Origin: Candidatus Enterousia sp.
GTDB taxonomy: Bacteria > Pseudomonadota > Alphaproteobacteria > Rs-D84
Reading direction: 5' to 3'
Length of the DNA: 54,842 nt
NCBI GenBank assembly: GCA_045649345.1
Contig: JAZRPS010000007.1
Location: 1-54,842 of the forward strand
A program made the position numbers and the translations under genes. The notes below the pieces were generated by a model, which ran no database searches, was not told the origin of the DNA, and was given only the letters and a program-made list of their open reading frames with translations. Every line of letters begins with the position of its first letter. The stretch's first letter is position 1. Of this stretch, positions 720 to 46,724 are shown piece by piece.

Positions 720-3700
720 ATGGCATATAAAAAAACAGATGCGCGTGCAGACTTTACCGCCTTGGAACAGGAAATGTTAACCAAGTGGGCAAACGAAGAT
801 ACTTTTCATAAATCATTGAAACAAACAAAACAGGGGCATCCTTTTTCGTTTTATGATGGGCCCCCATTTGCGAACGGTTTGCCACACTGGGGGCATTTGG
901 GTGTGACGGTGGTCAAAGACATGGTGTCGCGTTTCCAAACAATGAACGGACGGTTTGTGCGACGTGAACTGGGTTGGGATTGTCATGGGTTGCCTGCGGA
1001 AAATTCTGTTGAAAAAAAGCAAGGTCGTCGTGCCAAAGATATCGTTGCAAACGATGGTATTGCGGCATTCTGTGATATGTGCAGAACAGATGTTATGACA
1101 TATACAAACGAATGGAATCGTTTTATATCTCGTATGGGTCGTTGGGTTGATATTGGTGATAACTATGGTTACAGAACTATGGATAAAAATTATATGGAAT
1201 CAATGTTGTGGACGTTAAAGACATTGTATGACAAAGGATTGTTATATAAAGATTACAGTGTTAATCCATACGATTGGGTAAATGGTACAGTGGTATCTAA
1301 TTCCGAGGCATCACAAGACTATCGTGAAATTATTGATGATGCGTTAACTGTTTGGTTTGAACTGGAAAATGGTGACCGGGCGATTGCATGGACAACAACG
1401 CCATGGACACTGCCGGCAAATTCTGCATTGGCGGTAAATCCAAATATGACATATCTGCGTATGCAGGATAGTGATGGTGCCGTATACGTCATCGCAGAAA
1501 GTCGATTAAAGGCATATGAAAAACAATTTGCAAATGCAACAGAAATAGGTCGCATCAAGGGCTCTGATTTGGTTGGGTTGCATTACACACCATTGTTCCC
1601 ATATTATTCGAATGAATCTGAATTGTTATTTCAGGTAATCCCAGCAGATTATGTATCTGACGGCGATGGTACGGGTATCGTTCATATTGCGCCTGCCTAT
1701 GGTGCCGAAGACTTTTGGGCGGCGAAAAACATCGACCCAAAATTCCCAGTACTGTTAAACGTTGATACATATGGAAACTTTGATGAAACAGTAATCGATT
1801 TTGCTGGTGAAAATATTTTTGAAGCCACACCAAAGATAATAGATTGGTTAAAAACAAATGGTAAATTGGTTAAAAAAGAACAATATAAACACAGTTATCC
1901 ATTCGGTGACCGCAGTAAACAAAAACTGATACAACGCGCAACAGATTCATGGTATATCGATGTGCCGAAAATCAAAGATAAGCTGTTGGCAAATAACGCA
2001 AAAGTAAACTGGACATCTGCCGGTGAACGTTTCCGTAATTGGATTGAAAACGCACGCCCATGGTCAATTTCACGAAATCGTTTCTGGGGTATGCCATTGC
2101 CAATCTGGGAACGTAACGGTGAATACAAAGTTTTTGGTTCAATCGCAGAATTGGAAGAATTCTTTGGCGTGAAAATTGATGACCTGCATCGCCCAACACT
2201 GGATAAACTGACCAAGGACGGTTGGACACGCATAACAGATGTTCTGGATTGCTGGGTGGAAAGTGGTTCTATGCCATGGGCATCATTGCACTATCCATTT
2301 GAAAATGCAGAACGCTTTGCGGCGACTTTCCCGGCAGACTATATTATCGAAGGTCAAGACCAAACACGCGGTTGGTTCTATGCACTGATGGTGCTGGCAA
2401 CTGCCCTGTTTGATAAACCTGCGTTCAAGACAGTGTCGGTTAATGGTTTAATGGTTGATGAAAACAAAAAGAAATATTCAAAATCATTAAAAAACTATGT
2501 TGATCCTTCACAACAAATTGAACAATACGGTGCGGATGCGGTTCGTTTATTTATACTGGGGTCTAATTTTATGAAAACAGAACCTGTGCCAATTGATAAC
2601 GAAGGTAAAGTTTTCTTGGATTCCGGTAAAGTAATTCAAACACCATTATGGAATGCGTATCACTTCTTTACGTTGTATGCAAATGCAGGCAATGTCACTG
2701 CGCATGAAATCAGCAATCCAACGAACGTATTGGATAAATACATTTTGGCTGAATTAAATGTATTAACAGATGTGGTTAGAAATTCATTAAATGAATATAA
2801 ACCAGATGTTGCAATCAAAGAATTTGTTCGATTCTTGGACGTATTAAACAACTGGTATATTCGTCGTGGGCGTGCACGTTTCTGGGACGAAGAACAGGAT
2901 GCATTTGATACGCTGTATACGGTATTGGTGCGCTTTTGTCGCGTATTGGCACCATTCGCGCCATTTATCTCAGAATATATCTATACAAATTTAACAGGCG
3001 ATGAATCTGTGCACCTGACCACGTTCCCAGAATCAGAAAAAGTAGATGAAAAAATCGTTGATGACATGCGTCGTGTGCAATCAATTGTATCAACCGGCAA
3101 ACAGTTGCGCGAAGAATATAAATTGCGCAATCGTCTGCCATTGAATTCATTGACGGTCGCAGGCGCAAACATGCCCGAATACGCAGATATTATCAAAGAT
3201 GAACTGAACGTAAAATCAGTGAAATTCAATGAAACCTTTAACGACGTTGCAGATAGTTTTATATATCTGATTACACCAAAAATCGGCGCACGTTTGGGTG
3301 GCGCATTAAAGGAAATCATCCCATCGGTAAAGCGTGGCGATTATGAAATCGTGGGCGATAAATTAATTGCGTCTGGTCACGAATTAAATTCAGACGAATT
3401 TGAAAATCGTCTGACTGTAAAGCCGGGTGTGACGGGTGCGACCCTGCCTGATAATACGGCGGTTGTCGTACTGGATACAGATGTTAATTCAGACCTGATT
3501 GCCGAAGGTCTGGCGAACGATGCGTTGCGCTTTATCCAAGACACGCGCAAGGTGGCGGGGCTGGATGTGTCTGACCGTATTGTGCTGACATATTCGGCAG
3601 AACCTGCGTTGGCAATGGCGATTGAACAGCATAAACGTCGTATTATGCGCGATGCGTTGGTTGTTGAAATGGTTTGCGGTGACGGCGAATACACCAAGGA

Positions 3701-3743
3701 TATAGAAGGCTATGCATTAAGTATTTCTGTTAAAAAGGCATAA
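720..3743 (+). CDS. ileS: Isoleucyl-tRNA synthetase, type 2 (archaeal/eukaryote-like)
   Basis: FYDGPPFANGLPHWGH, GWDCHGLP, WTTTPWTLP, GTGIVH, WSISRNRFWG, EGQDQTRGWF and KYSKS motifs; long type-2 C-terminus without the type-1 zinc finger. Confidence 0.97.
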   Translation: MAYKKTDARADFTALEQEMLTKWANEDTFHKSLKQTKQGHPFSFYDGPPFANGLPHWGHLGVTVVKDMVSRFQTMNGRFVRRELGWDCHGLPAENSVEKKQGRRAKDIVANDGIAAFCDMCRTDVMTYTNEWNRFISRMGRWVDIGDNYGYRTMDKNYMESMLWTLKTLYDKGLLYKDYSVNPYDWVNGTVVSNSEASQDYREIIDDALTVWFELENGDRAIAWTTTPWTLPANSALAVNPNMTYLRMQDSDGAVYVIAESRLKAYEKQFANATEIGRIKGSDLVGLHYTPLFPYYSNESELLFQVIPADYVSDGDGTGIVHIAPAYGAEDFWAAKNIDPKFPVLLNVDTYGNFDETVIDFAGENIFEATPKIIDWLKTNGKLVKKEQYKHSYPFGDRSKQKLIQRATDSWYIDVPKIKDKLLANNAKVNWTSAGERFRNWIENARPWSISRNRFWGMPLPIWERNGEYKVFGSIAELEEFFGVKIDDLHRPTLDKLTKDGWTRITDVLDCWVESGSMPWASLHYPFENAERFAATFPADYIIEGQDQTRGWFYALMVLATALFDKPAFKTVSVNGLMVDENKKKYSKSLKNYVDPSQQIEQYGADAVRLFILGSNFMKTEPVPIDNEGKVFLDSGKVIQTPLWNAYHFFTLYANAGNVTAHEISNPTNVLDKYILAELNVLTDVVRNSLNEYKPDVAIKEFVRFLDVLNNWYIRRGRARFWDEEQDAFDTLYTVLVRFCRVLAPFAPFISEYIYTNLTGDESVHLTTFPESEKVDEKIVDDMRRVQSIVSTGKQLREEYKLRNRLPLNSLTVAGANMPEYADIIKDELNVKSVKFNETFNDVADSFIYLITPKIGARLGGALKEIIPSVKRGDYEIVGDKLIASGHELNSDEFENRLTVKPGVTGATLPDNTAVVVLDTDVNSDLIAEGLANDALRFIQDTRKVAGLDVSDRIVLTYSAEPALAMAIEQHKRRIMRDALVVEMVCGDGEYTKDIEGYALSISVKKA

Positions 3744-17455: not shown

Positions 17456-17995
17456 ATGTCGGGATTGCGTGTTGTTTTGTTGTCGTGTTGCGCGCCGTGT
17501 TCGGCGGGTGCAATTAAGCAGTTGGCAGACCGCGCAATCCCAGACGTATCTGACTTTATCGTTCTGTTTTATAATCCAAATATTTTCCCAGAATCTGAAT
17601 ATACCAAACGCATGCATGAACAGATTAAATATTGTGAACAGTTGGGTGTGAAATATGCTGTTTTGGAATATGACCATGACGCGTGGCGTGACGCCGTGCG
17701 TGGTCTGGAAATAGAACCTGAACGCGGTGCGCGCTGTTCGCTGTGTTTTGAATATAGATTTCGCCGCGCGGTAAAATTTGCACGTGAACATGGCTATAAC
17801 GCGATTGCAAGTGTACTGGGCGTATCGCGTCACAAAGACCAAAGTCAGGTTGACACCGCCGCCCAAACGGAATGTTCTGATATTCAATATTTGCCAATAA
17901 AGTGGGACGAAGGTTTACGTGTACAAATTAATCGCGCGTCTGACTTTTATCGTCAAAATTATTGCGGTTGCGAATTTAGTATTCGCAAAGTATAA
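17456..17995 (+). CDS. queH: Epoxyqueuosine reductase QueH (DUF208)
   Basis: CCAPCS, FYNPNI.P, ERG.RC..CF, YRQNYCGC.FS. Start moved to ATG 17456. Confidence 0.9.
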   Translation: MSGLRVVLLSCCAPCSAGAIKQLADRAIPDVSDFIVLFYNPNIFPESEYTKRMHEQIKYCEQLGVKYAVLEYDHDAWRDAVRGLEIEPERGARCSLCFEYRFRRAVKFAREHGYNAIASVLGVSRHKDQSQVDTAAQTECSDIQYLPIKWDEGLRVQINRASDFYRQNYCGCEFSIRKV

Positions 17996-18024: not shown

Positions 18025-18900
18025 ATGTCATCAATATTTGTTTTCCCAGGTCAAGGTGCGCAAAGCGTCGGCATGGGACGCGATTTATATGAAAATAATG
18101 CCATTGCACGCGCCGTGTTTGATGAGGTTGACGACGCTCTTGGTGAAAAGTTATCGGAAATCATTTTCAATGGTCCAACCGATACATTGACGTTGACTGC
18201 AAATGTTCAGCCGGCAATTATGGCAACATCGATTGCAATGTTGCGTGCATCTGGTGCGTCACTTCCAGAATATGTTGCGGGACACTCATTGGGTGAATAT
18301 ACGGCATTATGTGCGGCCGGCGCATTAAGTGTTGGTGATACCGCGAAACTATTGCGCGCACGTGGTAATGCAATGCAGACTGCGGTTCCGGTGGGACATG
18401 GTTTAACGGCTGTTATTTTAGGTTTGGATATCGACGTTGTTCGTGAAATTTGTGCAAAAACAGACTGTGATGTTGCCAATGACAATTCCCCGGGTCAGGT
18501 TGTAATTTCTGGTGCCAAAGATGTCGTAGAACAAACAATGGTTGCTGCCAAGGATGCGGGTGCAAAACGTGCAATGCCGTTGGCATTATCTGTACCTGTT
18601 CATTGCCGGATTCAGCAGCCTGCTGCCGACGCAATGCACGCAGCATTGGCAGGTGTAAAAATGATTACGCCATCTGTACCATTAATTTCGAACAAGACAT
18701 GTACCCCGATAACCGATGTTAACGAAATCAAAGACGCGCTTGTTTATCAAATGACGCATGGCGTGCGCTGGCGCGAAAGTGTATTGGCAATGGCTGATAT
18801 GGGTATCACAGATATGATAGAGGTTGGACCAGGTGTCGTCCTGACGGGACTGTGTTCACGCATTACAGATAAAATAACCGCAAAGAAGATGGAGATATAG
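18025..18900 (+). CDS. fabD: Malonyl-CoA:ACP transacylase
   Basis: FPGQGAQ, GHSLGEY, N.PGQVVISG, VRW.ES. Confidence 0.95.
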   Translation: MSSIFVFPGQGAQSVGMGRDLYENNAIARAVFDEVDDALGEKLSEIIFNGPTDTLTLTANVQPAIMATSIAMLRASGASLPEYVAGHSLGEYTALCAAGALSVGDTAKLLRARGNAMQTAVPVGHGLTAVILGLDIDVVREICAKTDCDVANDNSPGQVVISGAKDVVEQTMVAAKDAGAKRAMPLALSVPVHCRIQQPAADAMHAALAGVKMITPSVPLISNKTCTPITDVNEIKDALVYQMTHGVRWRESVLAMADMGITDMIEVGPGVVLTGLCSRITDKITAKKMEI

Positions 18901-43667: not shown

Positions 43668-44219
43668 ATGCCAACAGAATATACAAAAAAAGAGATTTTA
43701 GATGCTATAAATATAGGTATGGCAGACTATTTGGAAATAGCGCGTATTGGTCTGCGTAGTCACTGGAAAGGTTTAAGTCAGTCTGAAAAATGGGCTGCCG
43801 GTCGTGCGCTGGTGGTTTTGGCTGATGTCAAGAAAAATCCAGCAAAATATTTTTCTCGTTCCACAACTTATGATGCATGGAAGGGGCGTGCAAGCGCGTA
43901 TGCAAAAGAAAAGAATTTGCGTTCTTCTTCATATGCGTATTACATTGTTCCTGACCCAACAAATGTCGTTTGGAATCAGGTTGCGCCTGCGTTCATATAT
44001 AATGCCGAACATGGTAAAAAATTTTATAAGTTTTGCCAAATGGTTCAAAAATGGGAATATGCCCGTACGGCGCATGCATACGCCGAAGATGGCGTTGCTG
44101 CCTTGTATGGGTACGATATTGTTAATATGACAAGGGTATCACATAGGTATGTGGGTTTGAAAAAAACAAACCCAATGCTTCGTCCAATCAAAGAAATGTT
44201 TCATTCATTTCAAAAATAA
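43668..44219 (+). CDS. Hypothetical protein (orphan)
   Basis: 183-aa ORF with SD aaagga, its own promoter and a downstream terminator. Confidence 0.8.
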   Translation: MPTEYTKKEILDAINIGMADYLEIARIGLRSHWKGLSQSEKWAAGRALVVLADVKKNPAKYFSRSTTYDAWKGRASAYAKEKNLRSSSYAYYIVPDPTNVVWNQVAPAFIYNAEHGKKFYKFCQMVQKWEYARTAHAYAEDGVAALYGYDIVNMTRVSHRYVGLKKTNPMLRPIKEMFHSFQK

Positions 44220-44247
44220 AAAATCCCCTGTCCAAGGGGATTTTTTT
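44217..44247. terminator. Bidirectional terminator
   Basis: aaaaatcccct-gtcca-aggggattttttt. Confidence 0.8.
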
Positions 44248-44269: not shown

Positions 44270-45547
44270 TTAATGCTTTCCGCCGATTTTTGTACGTCCC
44301 CCCATCAGTGGTTGTAATTTCTTTGGAATATTTACAGAACCATCTGGGTTTTGGTGGTTTTCAATTACCGGTACAATTGCGCGTGGCAGGGCGATGCCCG
44401 TATTATTCAGGGTCGCACAGAATTGCATATTGCCGTCGTGGTCGCGATAGCGTGTATTTGTACGACGCGCCTGGAATTGACCAATCGACGAACAAGACCC
44501 CAGTTCGCGATATTTGCCTTCGCTTGGGAACCATGCTTCGACATCGTGCATTTTTACCTTGTTAAATCCCATGTCGCCGGTGCATGCCTGGATAACACGA
44601 TATGGCAATTCCAGGTCTTCCATAACTTCACACAAATTGTTTAACAGATGTTCATGCATTTCATTAGATTGTTCTGGGGTACAGTATATATATTGTTCAA
44701 CCTTGTTAAACTGATGTATACGAACGATTCCGCGCGTGTCGCGACCGGCAGCGCCGGCTTCTTTGCGAAAGCATGGTGAATACCCTGCATATTTGATTGG
44801 CAAATCTTTTTCGTTTAATACTTCATCACTGTGCAGTGAATTTAAAATGATTTCTGCGGTACCGGCCAAACATCTGTCTGTATCGGTCAGCATAAACACA
44901 TCGTTATTCATAACAGCTGGATCAGAACCCATAAAATGTCCTGCGTTAAATATTGTTTGTGGCTTTGTGATAGACGGACAGTTTACAAACGTAAATCCCT
45001 TGGACATCAGTTTTTGCAGAACATATGTCTGTATTGCCAGTTCCAGTTCCGCCGCTTCGCCAAACAGGGCATATGTACGTGTGCCACAGATTGACGCGAT
45101 TTTTTCAGGTCTGTACCAATTGTTCATTTCCAGCAAATCCCACTGCGCACGTGGTGTAAAGTCAAATTCGCGCGGTGTGCCGACGCGACGAACTTCTACA
45201 TTTTCTGTGTCATCACGTCCAATTGGTGAATCTGCGCTGGGGATTTGTGGTACGCGATGCAGCAAATCGGACAGTTGTTCTTCTTTTTCTGCCAATTCTG
45301 CCATGTCTGCGGCAATTTCATTCGCAATTTCTTTGGATTTTGCAATCAGTGGTGCCTTGTCCGTGGCGGTTGGAATTTCGCGTGTGATTTTATTTTTTTC
45401 TGCAGTTTTGCTTTGTGTGATTGTTTTCAGTTCACGCACACGTTTATCCAGATTAAGTATTTCATCTGTATTGTCTGCGATTCCTTTTAGTTCGCATGCG
45501 CGCTTAACTGCGTCTGGGTTTTCACGAATAAATTTTATATCCAGCAT
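44270..45547 (-). CDS. serS: Seryl-tRNA synthetase
   Basis: MLDIKFIRENP coiled-coil arm, LAGTAE, motif 2 CFRKEAG..G.DTRGI.R.HQF.KVE, motif 3 TLNNT.IA.PR, ENHQ..DG. Confidence 0.97.
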   Translation of the reverse strand: MLDIKFIRENPDAVKRACELKGIADNTDEILNLDKRVRELKTITQSKTAEKNKITREIPTATDKAPLIAKSKEIANEIAADMAELAEKEEQLSDLLHRVPQIPSADSPIGRDDTENVEVRRVGTPREFDFTPRAQWDLLEMNNWYRPEKIASICGTRTYALFGEAAELELAIQTYVLQKLMSKGFTFVNCPSITKPQTIFNAGHFMGSDPAVMNNDVFMLTDTDRCLAGTAEIILNSLHSDEVLNEKDLPIKYAGYSPCFRKEAGAAGRDTRGIVRIHQFNKVEQYIYCTPEQSNEMHEHLLNNLCEVMEDLELPYRVIQACTGDMGFNKVKMHDVEAWFPSEGKYRELGSCSSIGQFQARRTNTRYRDHDGNMQFCATLNNTGIALPRAIVPVIENHQNPDGSVNIPKKLQPLMGGRTKIGGKH

Positions 45548-45639
45548 TTTATATTCCCTTATGTTTATATGATTATGCCTTATGTTATAACTGTGCGATT
45601 AAATTCGCAATTAATAAAATTGAAAAAGTATACGATAAA

Positions 45640-45693
45640 TTATTCCCCCAACGGGGATGAAGAACGACTAAAAAATGTAAAATTTACTTTCAT
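45640..45693 (-). CDS. Putative serS leader peptide MKVNFTFFSRSSSPLGE
   Basis: ATG AAA GTA AAT TTT ACA TTT TTT AGT CGT TCT TCA TCC CCG TTG GGG GAA TAA. It starts 9 nt after TTGAAT-17-TATAAT and ends 92 nt upstream of serS. Confidence 0.72.
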   Translation of the reverse strand: MKVNFTFFSRSSSPLGE

Positions 45694-45821
45694 TTCCCAT
45701 GAATTATAAGCCAAGCTAAACAAAAATTCAATAAAATTAACATATGTCGATTTTGTTTGCGCTATTTTTTGCTTTGTGTTATGTTGGGCGCGAAATATAA
45801 ATACAAAAGGAAGGTATTGCT

Positions 45822-46724
45822 ATGTATGATATTATCATTTTGGGGTCTGGACCGGCAGGTCTGACGGCGGCATTGTATACGGCGCGCGCGAACAAAAAGA
45901 CGCTTGTCCTGGGTGGCGACAGATTGGGTGGTCAAACCGCCGGTATTGCAACGTTGGAAAATTATCCCGGCTGGGCGGGCAGTGGTCTGGAATTGGCGCA
46001 ATTTATGCAAAAGCAATGCGAAACATTTGGTGCAACGATTAAATTTGTTTCTGCAAAAAATATTTCTGGTGATGCAGAAAATGGGTTCGTTGTATCGTGT
46101 GACGATGGCGCAGAATATGCGGCACGTGCGGTTATTGTTGCAACGGGCGCATCCCCACGTAAACTGGAAATTGATGGTGCGCGTGAATTTATGGGACGTG
46201 GCGTATCATATTGCGCGACATGCGATGGGTTCTTTTACAGTGGCAAGACCGTAATTGTTCTGGGGGGTGGAAATTCTGCCCTAAACGATGCGTTGTACTT
46301 GGCAGACCTGGCCAAGACGGTAAAGATTGTGTATCGCAAATCAGAATTTTTCCGTGCCGAAGCGGTCTTGCGCGAACGTGTCGCGGCGCGTGAAAACATC
46401 GAATGCCTGTTTAATACGGATTTGGTTAAAATCGCCGCAAAGCCTGATTCCACAGATGGCGAATTAATTGTCACAACCACTGATGGTACAGATATGGTTG
46501 TTGATGGTGTATTTGTTGCCATCGGGCACGAAGCGAATACAGATTTCCTATCCGAAGAAATCAAGCGTGATGCGCTGGGACGTCTGGCACCATCTGCAAT
46601 GCCGGCAGGTATGTTTGTCGCAGGTGACGTTCATTCTGATATCAAGATGCAAATCGCGACGGCGGTTGGTACAGGATGCACCGCCGGCATGGACGCAATT
46701 GCGTATATAAATAAATTGCAGTAA
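45822..46724 (+). CDS. trxB: Thioredoxin reductase
   Basis: GSGPAGLTAALY.AR, ENYPG, GRGVSYCATCDG, GGGNSA, GVFVAIGH, AGDV. Confidence 0.94.
   Translation: MYDIIILGSGPAGLTAALYTARANKKTLVLGGDRLGGQTAGIATLENYPGWAGSGLELAQFMQKQCETFGATIKFVSAKNISGDAENGFVVSCDDGAEYAARAVIVATGASPRKLEIDGAREFMGRGVSYCATCDGFFYSGKTVIVLGGGNSALNDALYLADLAKTVKIVYRKSEFFRAEAVLRERVAARENIECLFNTDLVKIAAKPDSTDGELIVTTTDGTDMVVDGVFVAIGHEANTDFLSEEIKRDALGRLAPSAMPAGMFVAGDVHSDIKMQIATAVGTGCTAGMDAIAYINKLQ

Follow-up and report, generated by a model that had tools for sequence, protein, structure and literature searches.

The question raised by this locus is whether a short open reading frame (ORF) rich in serine (Ser) codons, located upstream of the seryl-tRNA synthetase gene serS, controls the synthetase gene, and if so by what means. 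The locus lies in a stretch of 54,842 nt (the window), contig JAZRPS010000007.1 of an assembly of the gut alphaproteobacterium Candidatus Enterousia sp. (GCA_045649345.1) that comprises 25 contigs and 0.914 Mb with a G+C content of 41.3%. The genus is assigned to the uncultured order Rs-D84, and the accessible part of the source describes reduced genomes in all members (PMC12306168). An initial annotation had proposed that the upstream ORF (uORF) is a leader peptide controlling serS. Judged from sequence, this proposal finds strong support in the anatomy of the leader, its conservation, the codon-level selection acting on it, and the paralogous leaders in front of the threonyl-, histidyl- and tryptophanyl-tRNA synthetase genes (thrS, hisS and trpS). 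We therefore regard the serS leader as very probably a cognate-codon sensor of some kind. It is a member of a small family of one-hairpin leaders of synthetase genes, and below we describe its parts, the selection on its codons and the ways in which ribosome position might be converted into serS expression.

All parts of the leader are given on the minus strand of the window. The serS gene itself (44270-45547) encodes a seryl-tRNA synthetase of 425 aa (TIGR00414, E 1.5e-126, 422.8 bits against a cut-off of 301.65) and is divergent from a thioredoxin-reductase-like gene (45822-46724), the gap between the two being 274 nt. In a consensus scan this gap holds one strong promoter, P1 (45703-45731), which is the one originally pointed out: TTGAAT (45731-45726) and TATAAT (45708-45703) are separated by 17 nt, with 10 of 12 matches. 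The uORF (45640-45693) also stands as described, running for 17 codons from ATG at 45693 to TAA at 45642-45640 and encoding MKVNFTFFSRSSSPLGE. Codons 9-13 (45655-45669), AGT CGT TCT TCA TCC for Ser, Arg, Ser, Ser, Ser, form the regulatory block and do place four different Ser codons in five positions. With the last of them opens the 5' arm of a hairpin, HP1 (UCCCC-GUUG-GGGGA, 45644-45657, -9.4 kcal/mol), the overlap having likewise been noticed before. The stop codon begins 1 nt past the HP1 stem and is followed by AAUAAUUUAUC; the A/U-rich tail behind HP1, AAUAAUUUAUCGUA (45630-45643, stop codon included), has 5 T in 8 nt. A spacer of 92 nt separates the uORF from the serS ATG (45547), as annotated, and contains the small second hairpin that had also been reported, HP2 (UGCGA-AUUUAA-UCGCA, 45594-45609), a putative second promoter, P2 (45582-45610; TTGCGA at 45610-45605, 17 nt, TAACAT at 45587-45582; 8 of 12 matches plus a spacing bonus), and the Shine-Dalgarno (SD) sequence of serS, AAGGGA (45555-45560). 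A duplication of AACATAAGG that had been noted near the SD is real in the window (45586-45578 and 45565-45557), but it is kept neither in the 99%-identical locus L002 nor in L033, and its loss from L002 makes it probably a matter of chance.

We sought a Ser-rich uORF upstream of serS in related genomes. The survey covered 110 loci, 30 from a genome search and 80 related loci, with several genomes in both sets; it left out 20 same-family genomes of other genera. A Ser-rich uORF with a hairpin was found in 70 of the 110 serS loci of Candidatus Enterousia-like genomes, corresponding to 62 distinct leaders (68 of the 70 were detected by a regular expression and two, L033 and L058, by direct reading; L110 was a false match and was excluded). 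Among the first 24 same-genus loci the leader was present in 11. Outside the family, it was found in L026 and L028, and L025, which belongs to another family, carries a variant in which three Ser codons are spaced out and the hairpin is CCCAC/GUGGG; in all, the Ser leader occurs in at least two other families of the order. In an alignment of the leaders (A1), TCA-TCC and the C and G arms of the hairpin are invariant or at least 90% conserved, and the N-terminal codons and the spacer are variable.

The surroundings of serS differ within the genus. Gene order varies (L016 and L018-L024 against L001-L015), serS being either divergent from the thioredoxin-reductase-like gene or directly behind it, and the Ser leader is absent where serS lies behind a co-directional reductase gene. 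One or two extra serS-like genes, whose products are 36-37% identical to the main seryl-tRNA synthetase, are present on contig 14 of genome G019 and contig 8 of genome G006.

In the 62 leaders, 272 of 1139 in-frame codons (23.9%) encode Ser, compared with 43 of 1077 (4.0%) and 31 of 1077 (2.9%) when the other two frames are read; across the genome, long ORFs have 6.2%. These frame statistics are partly conditioned on the choice of ORF because an SSP-like motif was required. The median is four Ser per uORF. Four codons upstream of the hairpin, AGT is found in 38 leaders and TCT, TCA or TCG in 11, and exchange between AGT and TCN takes two or three substitutions with Ser retained. The uORF is 17 codons long in 44 leaders, 18 in 13, 19 in 3, and 15 and 23 in one each; where alignment A1 has gaps in the uORF, they measure 3 nt, and the stop is the fifth codon past TCC in 58 of the 62. 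Taken at the level of sequence, these observations strongly support codon-level selection on the Ser leader. The invariant part consists of UCA-UCC at the hairpin foot together with a Ser codon four codons upstream. This differs from the initial annotation, in which the sampling of all main tRNA-Ser isoacceptors was the key feature of the uORF: the tRNA-Ser genes of the genome have the anticodons GCU, CGA, GGA and UGA, and the uORF of the window holds codons for three of these four.

The position of the uORF is as constant as its frame. Of the 60 leaders with sufficient flanking sequence, 57 are preceded by a promoter equivalent to P1 with at least 9 of 12 matches and 55 have their ATG 9-10 nt past the -10 hexamer; an SD-like tetramer ahead of the ATG is found in one of the 60. 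In the window the ATG is 9 nt downstream of the -10 hexamer of P1, and no SD precedes it. Since transcription usually starts about 7 nt past the -10 hexamer, the geometry of the promoter predicts a 5' untranslated region of 0-3 nt for the P1 transcript. With an ATG in this position and no SD, the uORF is predicted to be leaderless or nearly so, and its predicted translation would have to be of the leaderless kind.

The near-invariance of HP1 and the preceding TCATCC within the genus could also be expected of a sequence-specific binding site, that is, of a protein-binding hairpin or operator acting as an untranslated RNA or DNA element in which the ORF is incidental. The frame, start and stop are, however, kept in all 62 distinct leaders, Ser codons of the AGY and UCN types replace each other, the Ser enrichment is confined to one frame, and the same architecture recurs with other cognate codons before thrS, hisS and trpS. 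We consider such an element highly improbable.

No structure other than HP1 is shared by all leaders, and the arms of HP1 are paired with a median probability of 0.965 in the 62 leaders. It is constant within the genus, so that covariation cannot be counted there. Compensatory variants exist further afield, namely UCCGC/GCGGA in L028 and the CCCAC/GUGGG stem of L025, and counterparts of HP1 with other arms are found in the Thr leaders (ACCCC/GGGGU), the His leaders (CGCCC/GGGCG) and also the Trp leader. In L028 the tail of the peptide, SSSAMRG, is altered along with the hairpin. The retention of the stem through two-sided changes argues that the RNA hairpin is selected and not the PLGE tail of the peptide.

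Counterparts of the Ser leader were found by two genome-wide scans, both based on longest-ORF gene calls with eight synthetase genes located. In a composition scan of all upstream regions, for uORFs adjoining a -10 box with four or more identical residues in a 6-residue window, there were six matches, three of them ahead of the cognate synthetase gene (Ser before serS, Thr before thrS and Ile before ileS; the genes were confirmed by NCBIfam), which exceeds what chance would give. A structural scan that ignored composition and looked for a -10 box, an ORF of 9-30 codons and a GC hairpin ending at the stop gave seven matches, of which four are the leaders of serS, thrS, hisS and trpS. All four share one arrangement: the hairpin has the last cognate codon as its foot, and the stop comes directly behind it. 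The thrS leader, MKMFKSFFTTTTTTPLGV, is encoded on contig 20 of the same genome, G000 (L112:411-467, plus strand), with the hairpin ACCCC-UUUG-GGGGU at 450-463 and a TTGATT-17-TATGAT promoter 7 nt before the uORF; the unit as a whole spans L112:375-502. On contig 18 the hisS leader, MKNKMFIFVELHHAHVGEY (L113:1471-1412, minus strand), has the hairpin CGCCC-AUGU-GGGCG at 1433-1420 and, downstream of it, an extended -10-like box, TGATATAAT (L113:1394-1386); the hisS leaders have TGnTATAAT after the HP1 hairpin. The trpS leader, MNKFYIIFTKNNCWRIAA (contig 19, L178:1309-1253, minus strand), begins 10 nt past a TATAAT; a single UGG opens its GGCG/CGCC hairpin, and a second element, GCCC...GGGC with a U-rich tail, follows downstream. 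Together with the conservation in relatives, the occurrence of Thr, His and Trp counterparts before the matching synthetase genes makes the serS leader very probably a tRNA-charging sensor.

The Thr leader is present in all 23 readable same-genus thrS loci and in three of six loci of other families. The His leader was detected by script in 19 of 21 same-genus hisS loci and recognized by eye in the remaining two, one of which has a GTG start and the other a single His codon; hisS leaders carry 1-4 His codons. No His leader was seen in seven hisS loci of other families, where another gene ends just upstream. The ileS leader is of a different type, a classical attenuator (616-697 of the window, plus strand; ileS at 720-3743). 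Its uORF, MKQATIIIIK (616-648), starts 7 nt past a TATCCT -10-like box, the region has a fold z-score of -2.63, and an alternative pairing is followed by a terminator, GGCGC-AUGG-GCGCC with 7 U (677-697). No leader was found ahead of the valS-, leuS- and proS-like paralogues, identified by phmmer similarity alone.

Two further structures of this general kind were noted. In the hisS leaders, a small hairpin past the extended -10-like box shows compensatory variation among relatives, as judged by reading. On contig 23 of G000 (L117:1-385, plus strand), a uORF of 35 codons with HLHHAPAGACFL at its end overlaps a GC hairpin that is followed by a T run, and the Lys/Ala-rich ORF of 188 aa downstream has no NCBIfam match; the structure could be the terminator of the upstream gene or another leader.

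The Thr version is not confined to Rs-D84. When 401 genomes sampled from the class were screened with a strict pattern for Thr leaders, 11 had a match, four of them in the order; of the seven outside, two have true Thr leaders before thrS and five have the match in unrelated GC-rich sequence. A control with the pattern reversed gave matches in about 29 genomes. The pattern thus has no specificity by itself, and it is context that makes the two loci, L180 (genome G540) and L181 (genome G285), credible. Both belong to other orders of the class and have Thr-rich uORFs abutting a promoter, MFVYSLITTTFTTTTP and MIVFIAKFITTTTTTP, 83 and 68 nt upstream of thrS; their stop codons are located within the hairpin loop or next to it. 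No Ser leader was found at serS in these two genomes and two relatives. The presence of a Thr leader before thrS in two other alphaproteobacterial families indicates that the Thr version is older than the order.

The spacer between leader and gene contains two features that bear on the fate of the transcript. HP2 is found in 16 of the 62 serS leaders, always as TGCGA/TCGCA. In the thrS leader of G000 it is located at L112:475-488, between the TTG and the TATAAT of a TTGCGA-17-TATAAT element (474-502), and among thrS leaders the stems GCGA/UCGC, GCGG/CCGC, GCGC/GCGC, GCAC/GUGC and GUGC/GCAC occur, a compensatory pattern of change. RNAalifold recovered HP1 alone from 23 thrS leaders; since MAFFT had misaligned the variable HP2 loops, HP2 was folded in each sequence separately. 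Covariation of HP2 in thrS leaders, inside putative P2, suggests that P1 transcripts pass HP1 at least sometimes. The TGCGA/TCGCA palindrome was also considered as a genome-wide operator, and this was rejected: there are 20 matches in the genome (both strands), and outside called ORFs they occur only before serS and thrS. The covariation in thrS leaders favours an RNA hairpin. A third TGCGA...TCGCA palindrome was noticed at 17969-17987 (plus strand), between a TTG and a TATAAT just upstream of an ORF (18025-18900) whose first residues we take to resemble malonyl-CoA-ACP transacylase; the layout, a promoter with a palindrome, is like that of putative P2 of thrS and serS.

As to the second feature, the best promoter-like score in serS spacers has a median of 9.0 against 6.6 in shuffles and is at least 8 in 56 of 62, with the -10 mostly 40-55 nt upstream of the serS ATG. 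In three congeners without the uORF (L010, L011 and L014), the only promoter lies at about the same distance from serS as putative P2. From the spacer scores and this distance we infer a basal promoter, and a second promoter P2 in the serS spacer is probable. Its conserved position, the similar distance in the uORF-less congeners and the many congeners without any leader would all fit an arrangement in which the uORF and HP1 form a separate small transcription unit, making a peptide or a short RNA, and serS is driven by P2 only, with no regulatory link between them. We nevertheless consider this very unlikely. The enriched residue fits the downstream synthetase in four independent cases (Ser, Thr, His and Ile), and a single Trp codon precedes trpS; the tail of the L028 peptide changes together with its hairpin; and a covarying HP2 lies downstream of HP1.

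If the leader is a sensor, what does it act on? The initial annotation offered pairing of UCCC with the GGGA of the SD as one route. A related arrangement, translational attenuation of the type described for cysteine (Cys) small ORFs (sORFs) of mycobacteria, would have the Ser tract pair with the serS SD and a stalled ribosome set the SD free. UCN Ser codons are indeed complementary to GGA-type SDs, and the minimum-energy fold of the window leader pairs GUUCUU with GGGAAU of the SD. For pairing between SD and regulatory codons, the predicted probability is 0.29 for the leader of the window, rises to 0.54 in L033 and 0.95 in L002, and is above 0.3 in 20 of the 62 leaders. In leaderless polycysteine sORFs such a mechanism has been demonstrated (10.1101/834739). 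In the remaining 42 leaders, however, the probability is at most 0.3, the median is 0.04, and the SD, mostly AAGGA in the orthologues, is not conserved as a partner. HP1 would compete for UCCCC, and no matching complementarity to the SD was seen on reading the Thr and His leaders. The location of putative P2 between the uORF and the SD also means that most serS mRNA may lack the uORF. Sequestration of the SD is thus an unlikely route for serS, and UCCC pairing with the SD as first suggested does not fit the majority of leaders.

We instead favour a model in which the ribosome gates premature termination of the P1 transcript, HP1 being a pause site or weak terminator and Rho the probable finisher; our confidence in this reading is evenly balanced. 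Translation, the direction of the response, the start sites of P1 and P2 and the termination step are all predictions in this scheme. P1 would start transcription 0-3 nt ahead of the AUG, and a 70S ribosome would translate the approximately 17 codons. When Ser-tRNA is scarce, the ribosome would stall at the conserved Ser codons, that is, at the AGU four codons before the hairpin or at UCA-UCC at its foot. A ribosome covers roughly 12-13 nt past the A-site codon, and with this reach one stalled at the conserved cognate codons reaches or covers the 5' arm of HP1. The stalled ribosome would thereby cover this arm along with the only C-rich part of the leader. The P1 transcript would then escape premature termination, and P1 would add serS mRNA to the basal output of P2. 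When Ser-tRNA is plentiful, the ribosome would reach the stop behind HP1 and leave, HP1 would close, and the naked leader would be terminated, HP1 and its U-rich tail serving as a pause site or weak terminator and Rho most likely finishing. The leader can transmit one variable: HP1 is open and the leader occupied, or HP1 is closed and the leader naked.

Several features would fit a termination step. The initial annotation had stated that no hairpin-plus-U-tract terminator follows the uORF. This holds for the canonical type, none of which lies between the uORF and serS, but not entirely otherwise, as a loose terminator scan lists HP1, with its 5 T in the 8 nt past the stem, as terminator-like; HP1 is the sole candidate in this region. 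At least 5 T in 8 nt, beginning within 0-2 nt of the stem, are found in 39 of 61 serS, 19 of 26 thrS and 10 of 20 hisS leaders, and the T content further downstream of the hairpin is about 2.5-3.6 per 8 nt across leader types (about 2.8 for serS). In the leaders that have the stop codon in the loop, a U-rich tail is present in three of four cases (L142, L180 and L181; not L143). A stop located between hairpin and tail would let ribosomes finish normally on terminated leader RNA. Termination by Rho was the other route suggested by the initial annotation, and it is possible on sequence grounds. The genome encodes Rho (TIGR00767, 654.5 bits, above the cut-off), the regulatory block and the 5' arm of HP1 make up the single C-rich patch of the leader (7 C and 2 G in 17 nt), and serS spacers are poor in G (6.1%), with a median C/G of 2.75 that is above 1 in 60 of 62; for 209 other upstream regions the value is 1.00.

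A number of observations weigh against this reading. HP1 is short (4-5 pairs, with the energy given above) and the stop codon breaks up its tail, whereas the real terminators of the genome, that of the ileS leader included, have long stems and clean T runs; the canonical bidirectional terminator behind serS (44218-44246, minus strand), for instance, has a 12-pair stem followed by a T run. No antiterminator partner for either HP1 arm was found in single folds, in pair probabilities of the 62 leaders or in alignments. The C-over-G skew is missing from the thrS leaders (C/G 1.10), the hisS leaders (0.82) and the window's own leader taken as a whole (19 C, 20 G). A ribosome closely coupled to the polymerase would cover the 5' arm of HP1 just as a stalled one would, leaving the hairpin free only before any ribosome arrives, so that HP1 alone gives no serine specificity, and with a single hairpin in the first 60 nt switching by serine needs an extra step, a pause or Rho. 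A later-acting factor such as Rho removes the difficulty over serine specificity. According to one study (PMC4824070), terminators are functional within the first 100 bp of an ORF but are repressed when located just behind a stop codon. The leader is missing from 13 of the first 24 same-genus loci, in which serS lies directly behind a co-directional reductase gene or behind a short intergenic region with a single promoter, and its loss in many congeners means that it is dispensable. P2 by itself could drive serS. An RNA run searched as contigs (share 0.13) and a run of unknown kind gave low-depth pieces of relatives with no usable ends, and thus no evidence either way.

The timing problem of a co-transcriptional decision would be avoided if P1 transcripts were always read through and the leader acted on mRNA stability, a stalled ribosome together with HP1 shielding serS mRNA from decay that depends on the 5' end and so lengthening its half-life when serine is limiting. 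The uORF is at the very 5' end, with the regulatory codons about 25-40 nt from it, and the footprint of a stalled and a queued ribosome would cover the whole 5' end. The covariation of HP2 shows selection on RNA that P1 reads through to. However, protection from decay leaves unexplained why the stop stands directly behind HP1 in 58 of 62 leaders and why a U-rich tail follows, and we consider it quite unlikely.

If the leaders act as proposed, the Ser, Thr, His and probably Trp set would constitute a ribosome-run regulon that matches synthetase levels to tRNA charging in the reduced genomes of Rs-D84. Several synthetase genes of a bacterium with less than 1 Mb of DNA appear to be adjusted by a sensor as simple as can be conceived, made of a promoter, about 17 codons and a single hairpin. 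Control of serS beyond the T-box is poorly known, and neither a leader-peptide attenuator for serine nor a Ser leader before serS was found in the full-text literature searched, most subscription journals being outside its coverage. ORFs of 15-23 codons are missed by the usual length cut-offs of gene calling, and the same search logic found the Thr, His, Trp and Ile leaders in one pass. A cassette this compact could also act as a codon-specific reporter of charging. Elsewhere in the genome, ARAGORN placed a tmRNA with the tag AANDNVRLAMAA on contig 12 of G000 (45616-45970), marked by an asterisk that we take to denote a permuted tmRNA in two pieces, the form typical of Alphaproteobacteria.

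In Firmicutes, serS is usually controlled by the T-box riboswitch (RF00230), which performs the same task, more synthetase when the tRNA is uncharged; T-boxes are not the rule in Alphaproteobacteria. No T-box was found in the window or genome with the covariance model (0 of 27 candidates). The only Rfam match in the window to reach threshold is a tRNA elsewhere, a permissive scan of 45300-46000 gave at best 16.9 bits against gathering scores of 33-100, which is noise, and the thrS, hisS and trpS loci gave a single match, to an unrelated sRNA with E 0.43. The serS leader, at about 150 nt, is too short for a T-box, and its proposed sensor is a translating ribosome instead of direct tRNA binding.

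Classical leader peptides are closer. Control of synthetase genes by leader peptides is described for pheST in gamma-proteobacteria and for trpS and leuS in Streptomyces, as far as the available part of the source goes (PMC1262725). With these and with the attenuators of the trp, his and thr operons the serS leader shares a short ORF with cognate codons upstream of a pathway gene. The regulatory codons of classical leaders lie in the 5' arm of the first (pause) hairpin, and those of the serS leader likewise lie in the 5' arm of its first hairpin. It differs in that its ORF starts at the promoter and has no SD; in that there is one hairpin of 4-5 pairs, with no antiterminator/terminator pair and no clean U tract; in that the stop is fixed just behind or inside the hairpin, with a putative second promoter in the spacer; and in the amino acid, serine. 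The single-terminator coupling attenuators of the pyrBI type have one hairpin overlapped by the leader ORF and read the speed of RNA polymerase or ribosome coupling instead of how much of one aminoacyl-tRNA is available. They share with the serS leader this one overlapped hairpin, the formation of which the ribosome decides, but their logic applied to serS gives no serine specificity by itself.

For leaders that lack a terminator/antiterminator pair, the closest parallel is Rho-dependent control by a leader peptide of the tna operon type, which is named in the accessible text of the same source (PMC1262725). In both cases Rho would be kept off by a ribosome that stays on the leader. In the tna type the stall occurs at a stop codon and is caused by the free amino acid and an arrest peptide, whereas in the serS leader it would occur at hungry codons; the use of Rho and any rut site are here putative, and the excess of C over G is not seen in thrS and hisS leaders. 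In bacilli, a His leader peptide has been predicted before a hisS paralogue and hisZ, in the portion of the work that is available (Naville and Gautheret, PMC2965389). It shares with the present leaders a predicted cognate-codon peptide upstream of a synthetase-family gene; as that portion describes it, it was found through premature Rho-independent terminators, whereas the hisS leader here has a small hairpin and no canonical terminator. For serine itself, the accessible part of one study in Bacillus reports a gene that becomes sensitive to conditions connected with serine supply through its UCN codons but not through AGC or AGT (PMC3862929), which may bear on the invariant UCA-UCC.

Leaderless polycysteine sORFs of mycobacteria, attenuators that free a hidden ribosome-binding site (Canestrari et al., 10.1101/834739, in the part accessible), resemble the serS leader in being leaderless ORFs with a run of codons for a single residue, and they too involve several loci coordinated by the ribosome, termed a 'ribulon' there. 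As described in that part of the source, they differ in the pairing of codon tract and ribosome-binding site, which is not conserved in the serS leaders, and in their targets, biosynthetic genes in mycobacteria (Actinobacteria) as opposed to synthetase genes in Alphaproteobacteria. On the basis of these comparisons we tentatively suggest, as a possibility somewhat less likely than not, that the leaders form a distinct minimal class of attenuator: an ORF with cognate codons abutting the promoter, one hairpin with the last cognate codon at its foot and the stop within it or just past it, and no terminator/antiterminator switch, in which the dwell of the ribosome would gate a pause or Rho, serving a Ser, Thr, His and probably Trp regulon. 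Such a design is outside the textbook two-hairpin switch, of which the ileS leader of the same genome is a classical example, and its read-out would bear on how ribosome position can be turned into a transcriptional or post-transcriptional decision on leaderless RNAs.

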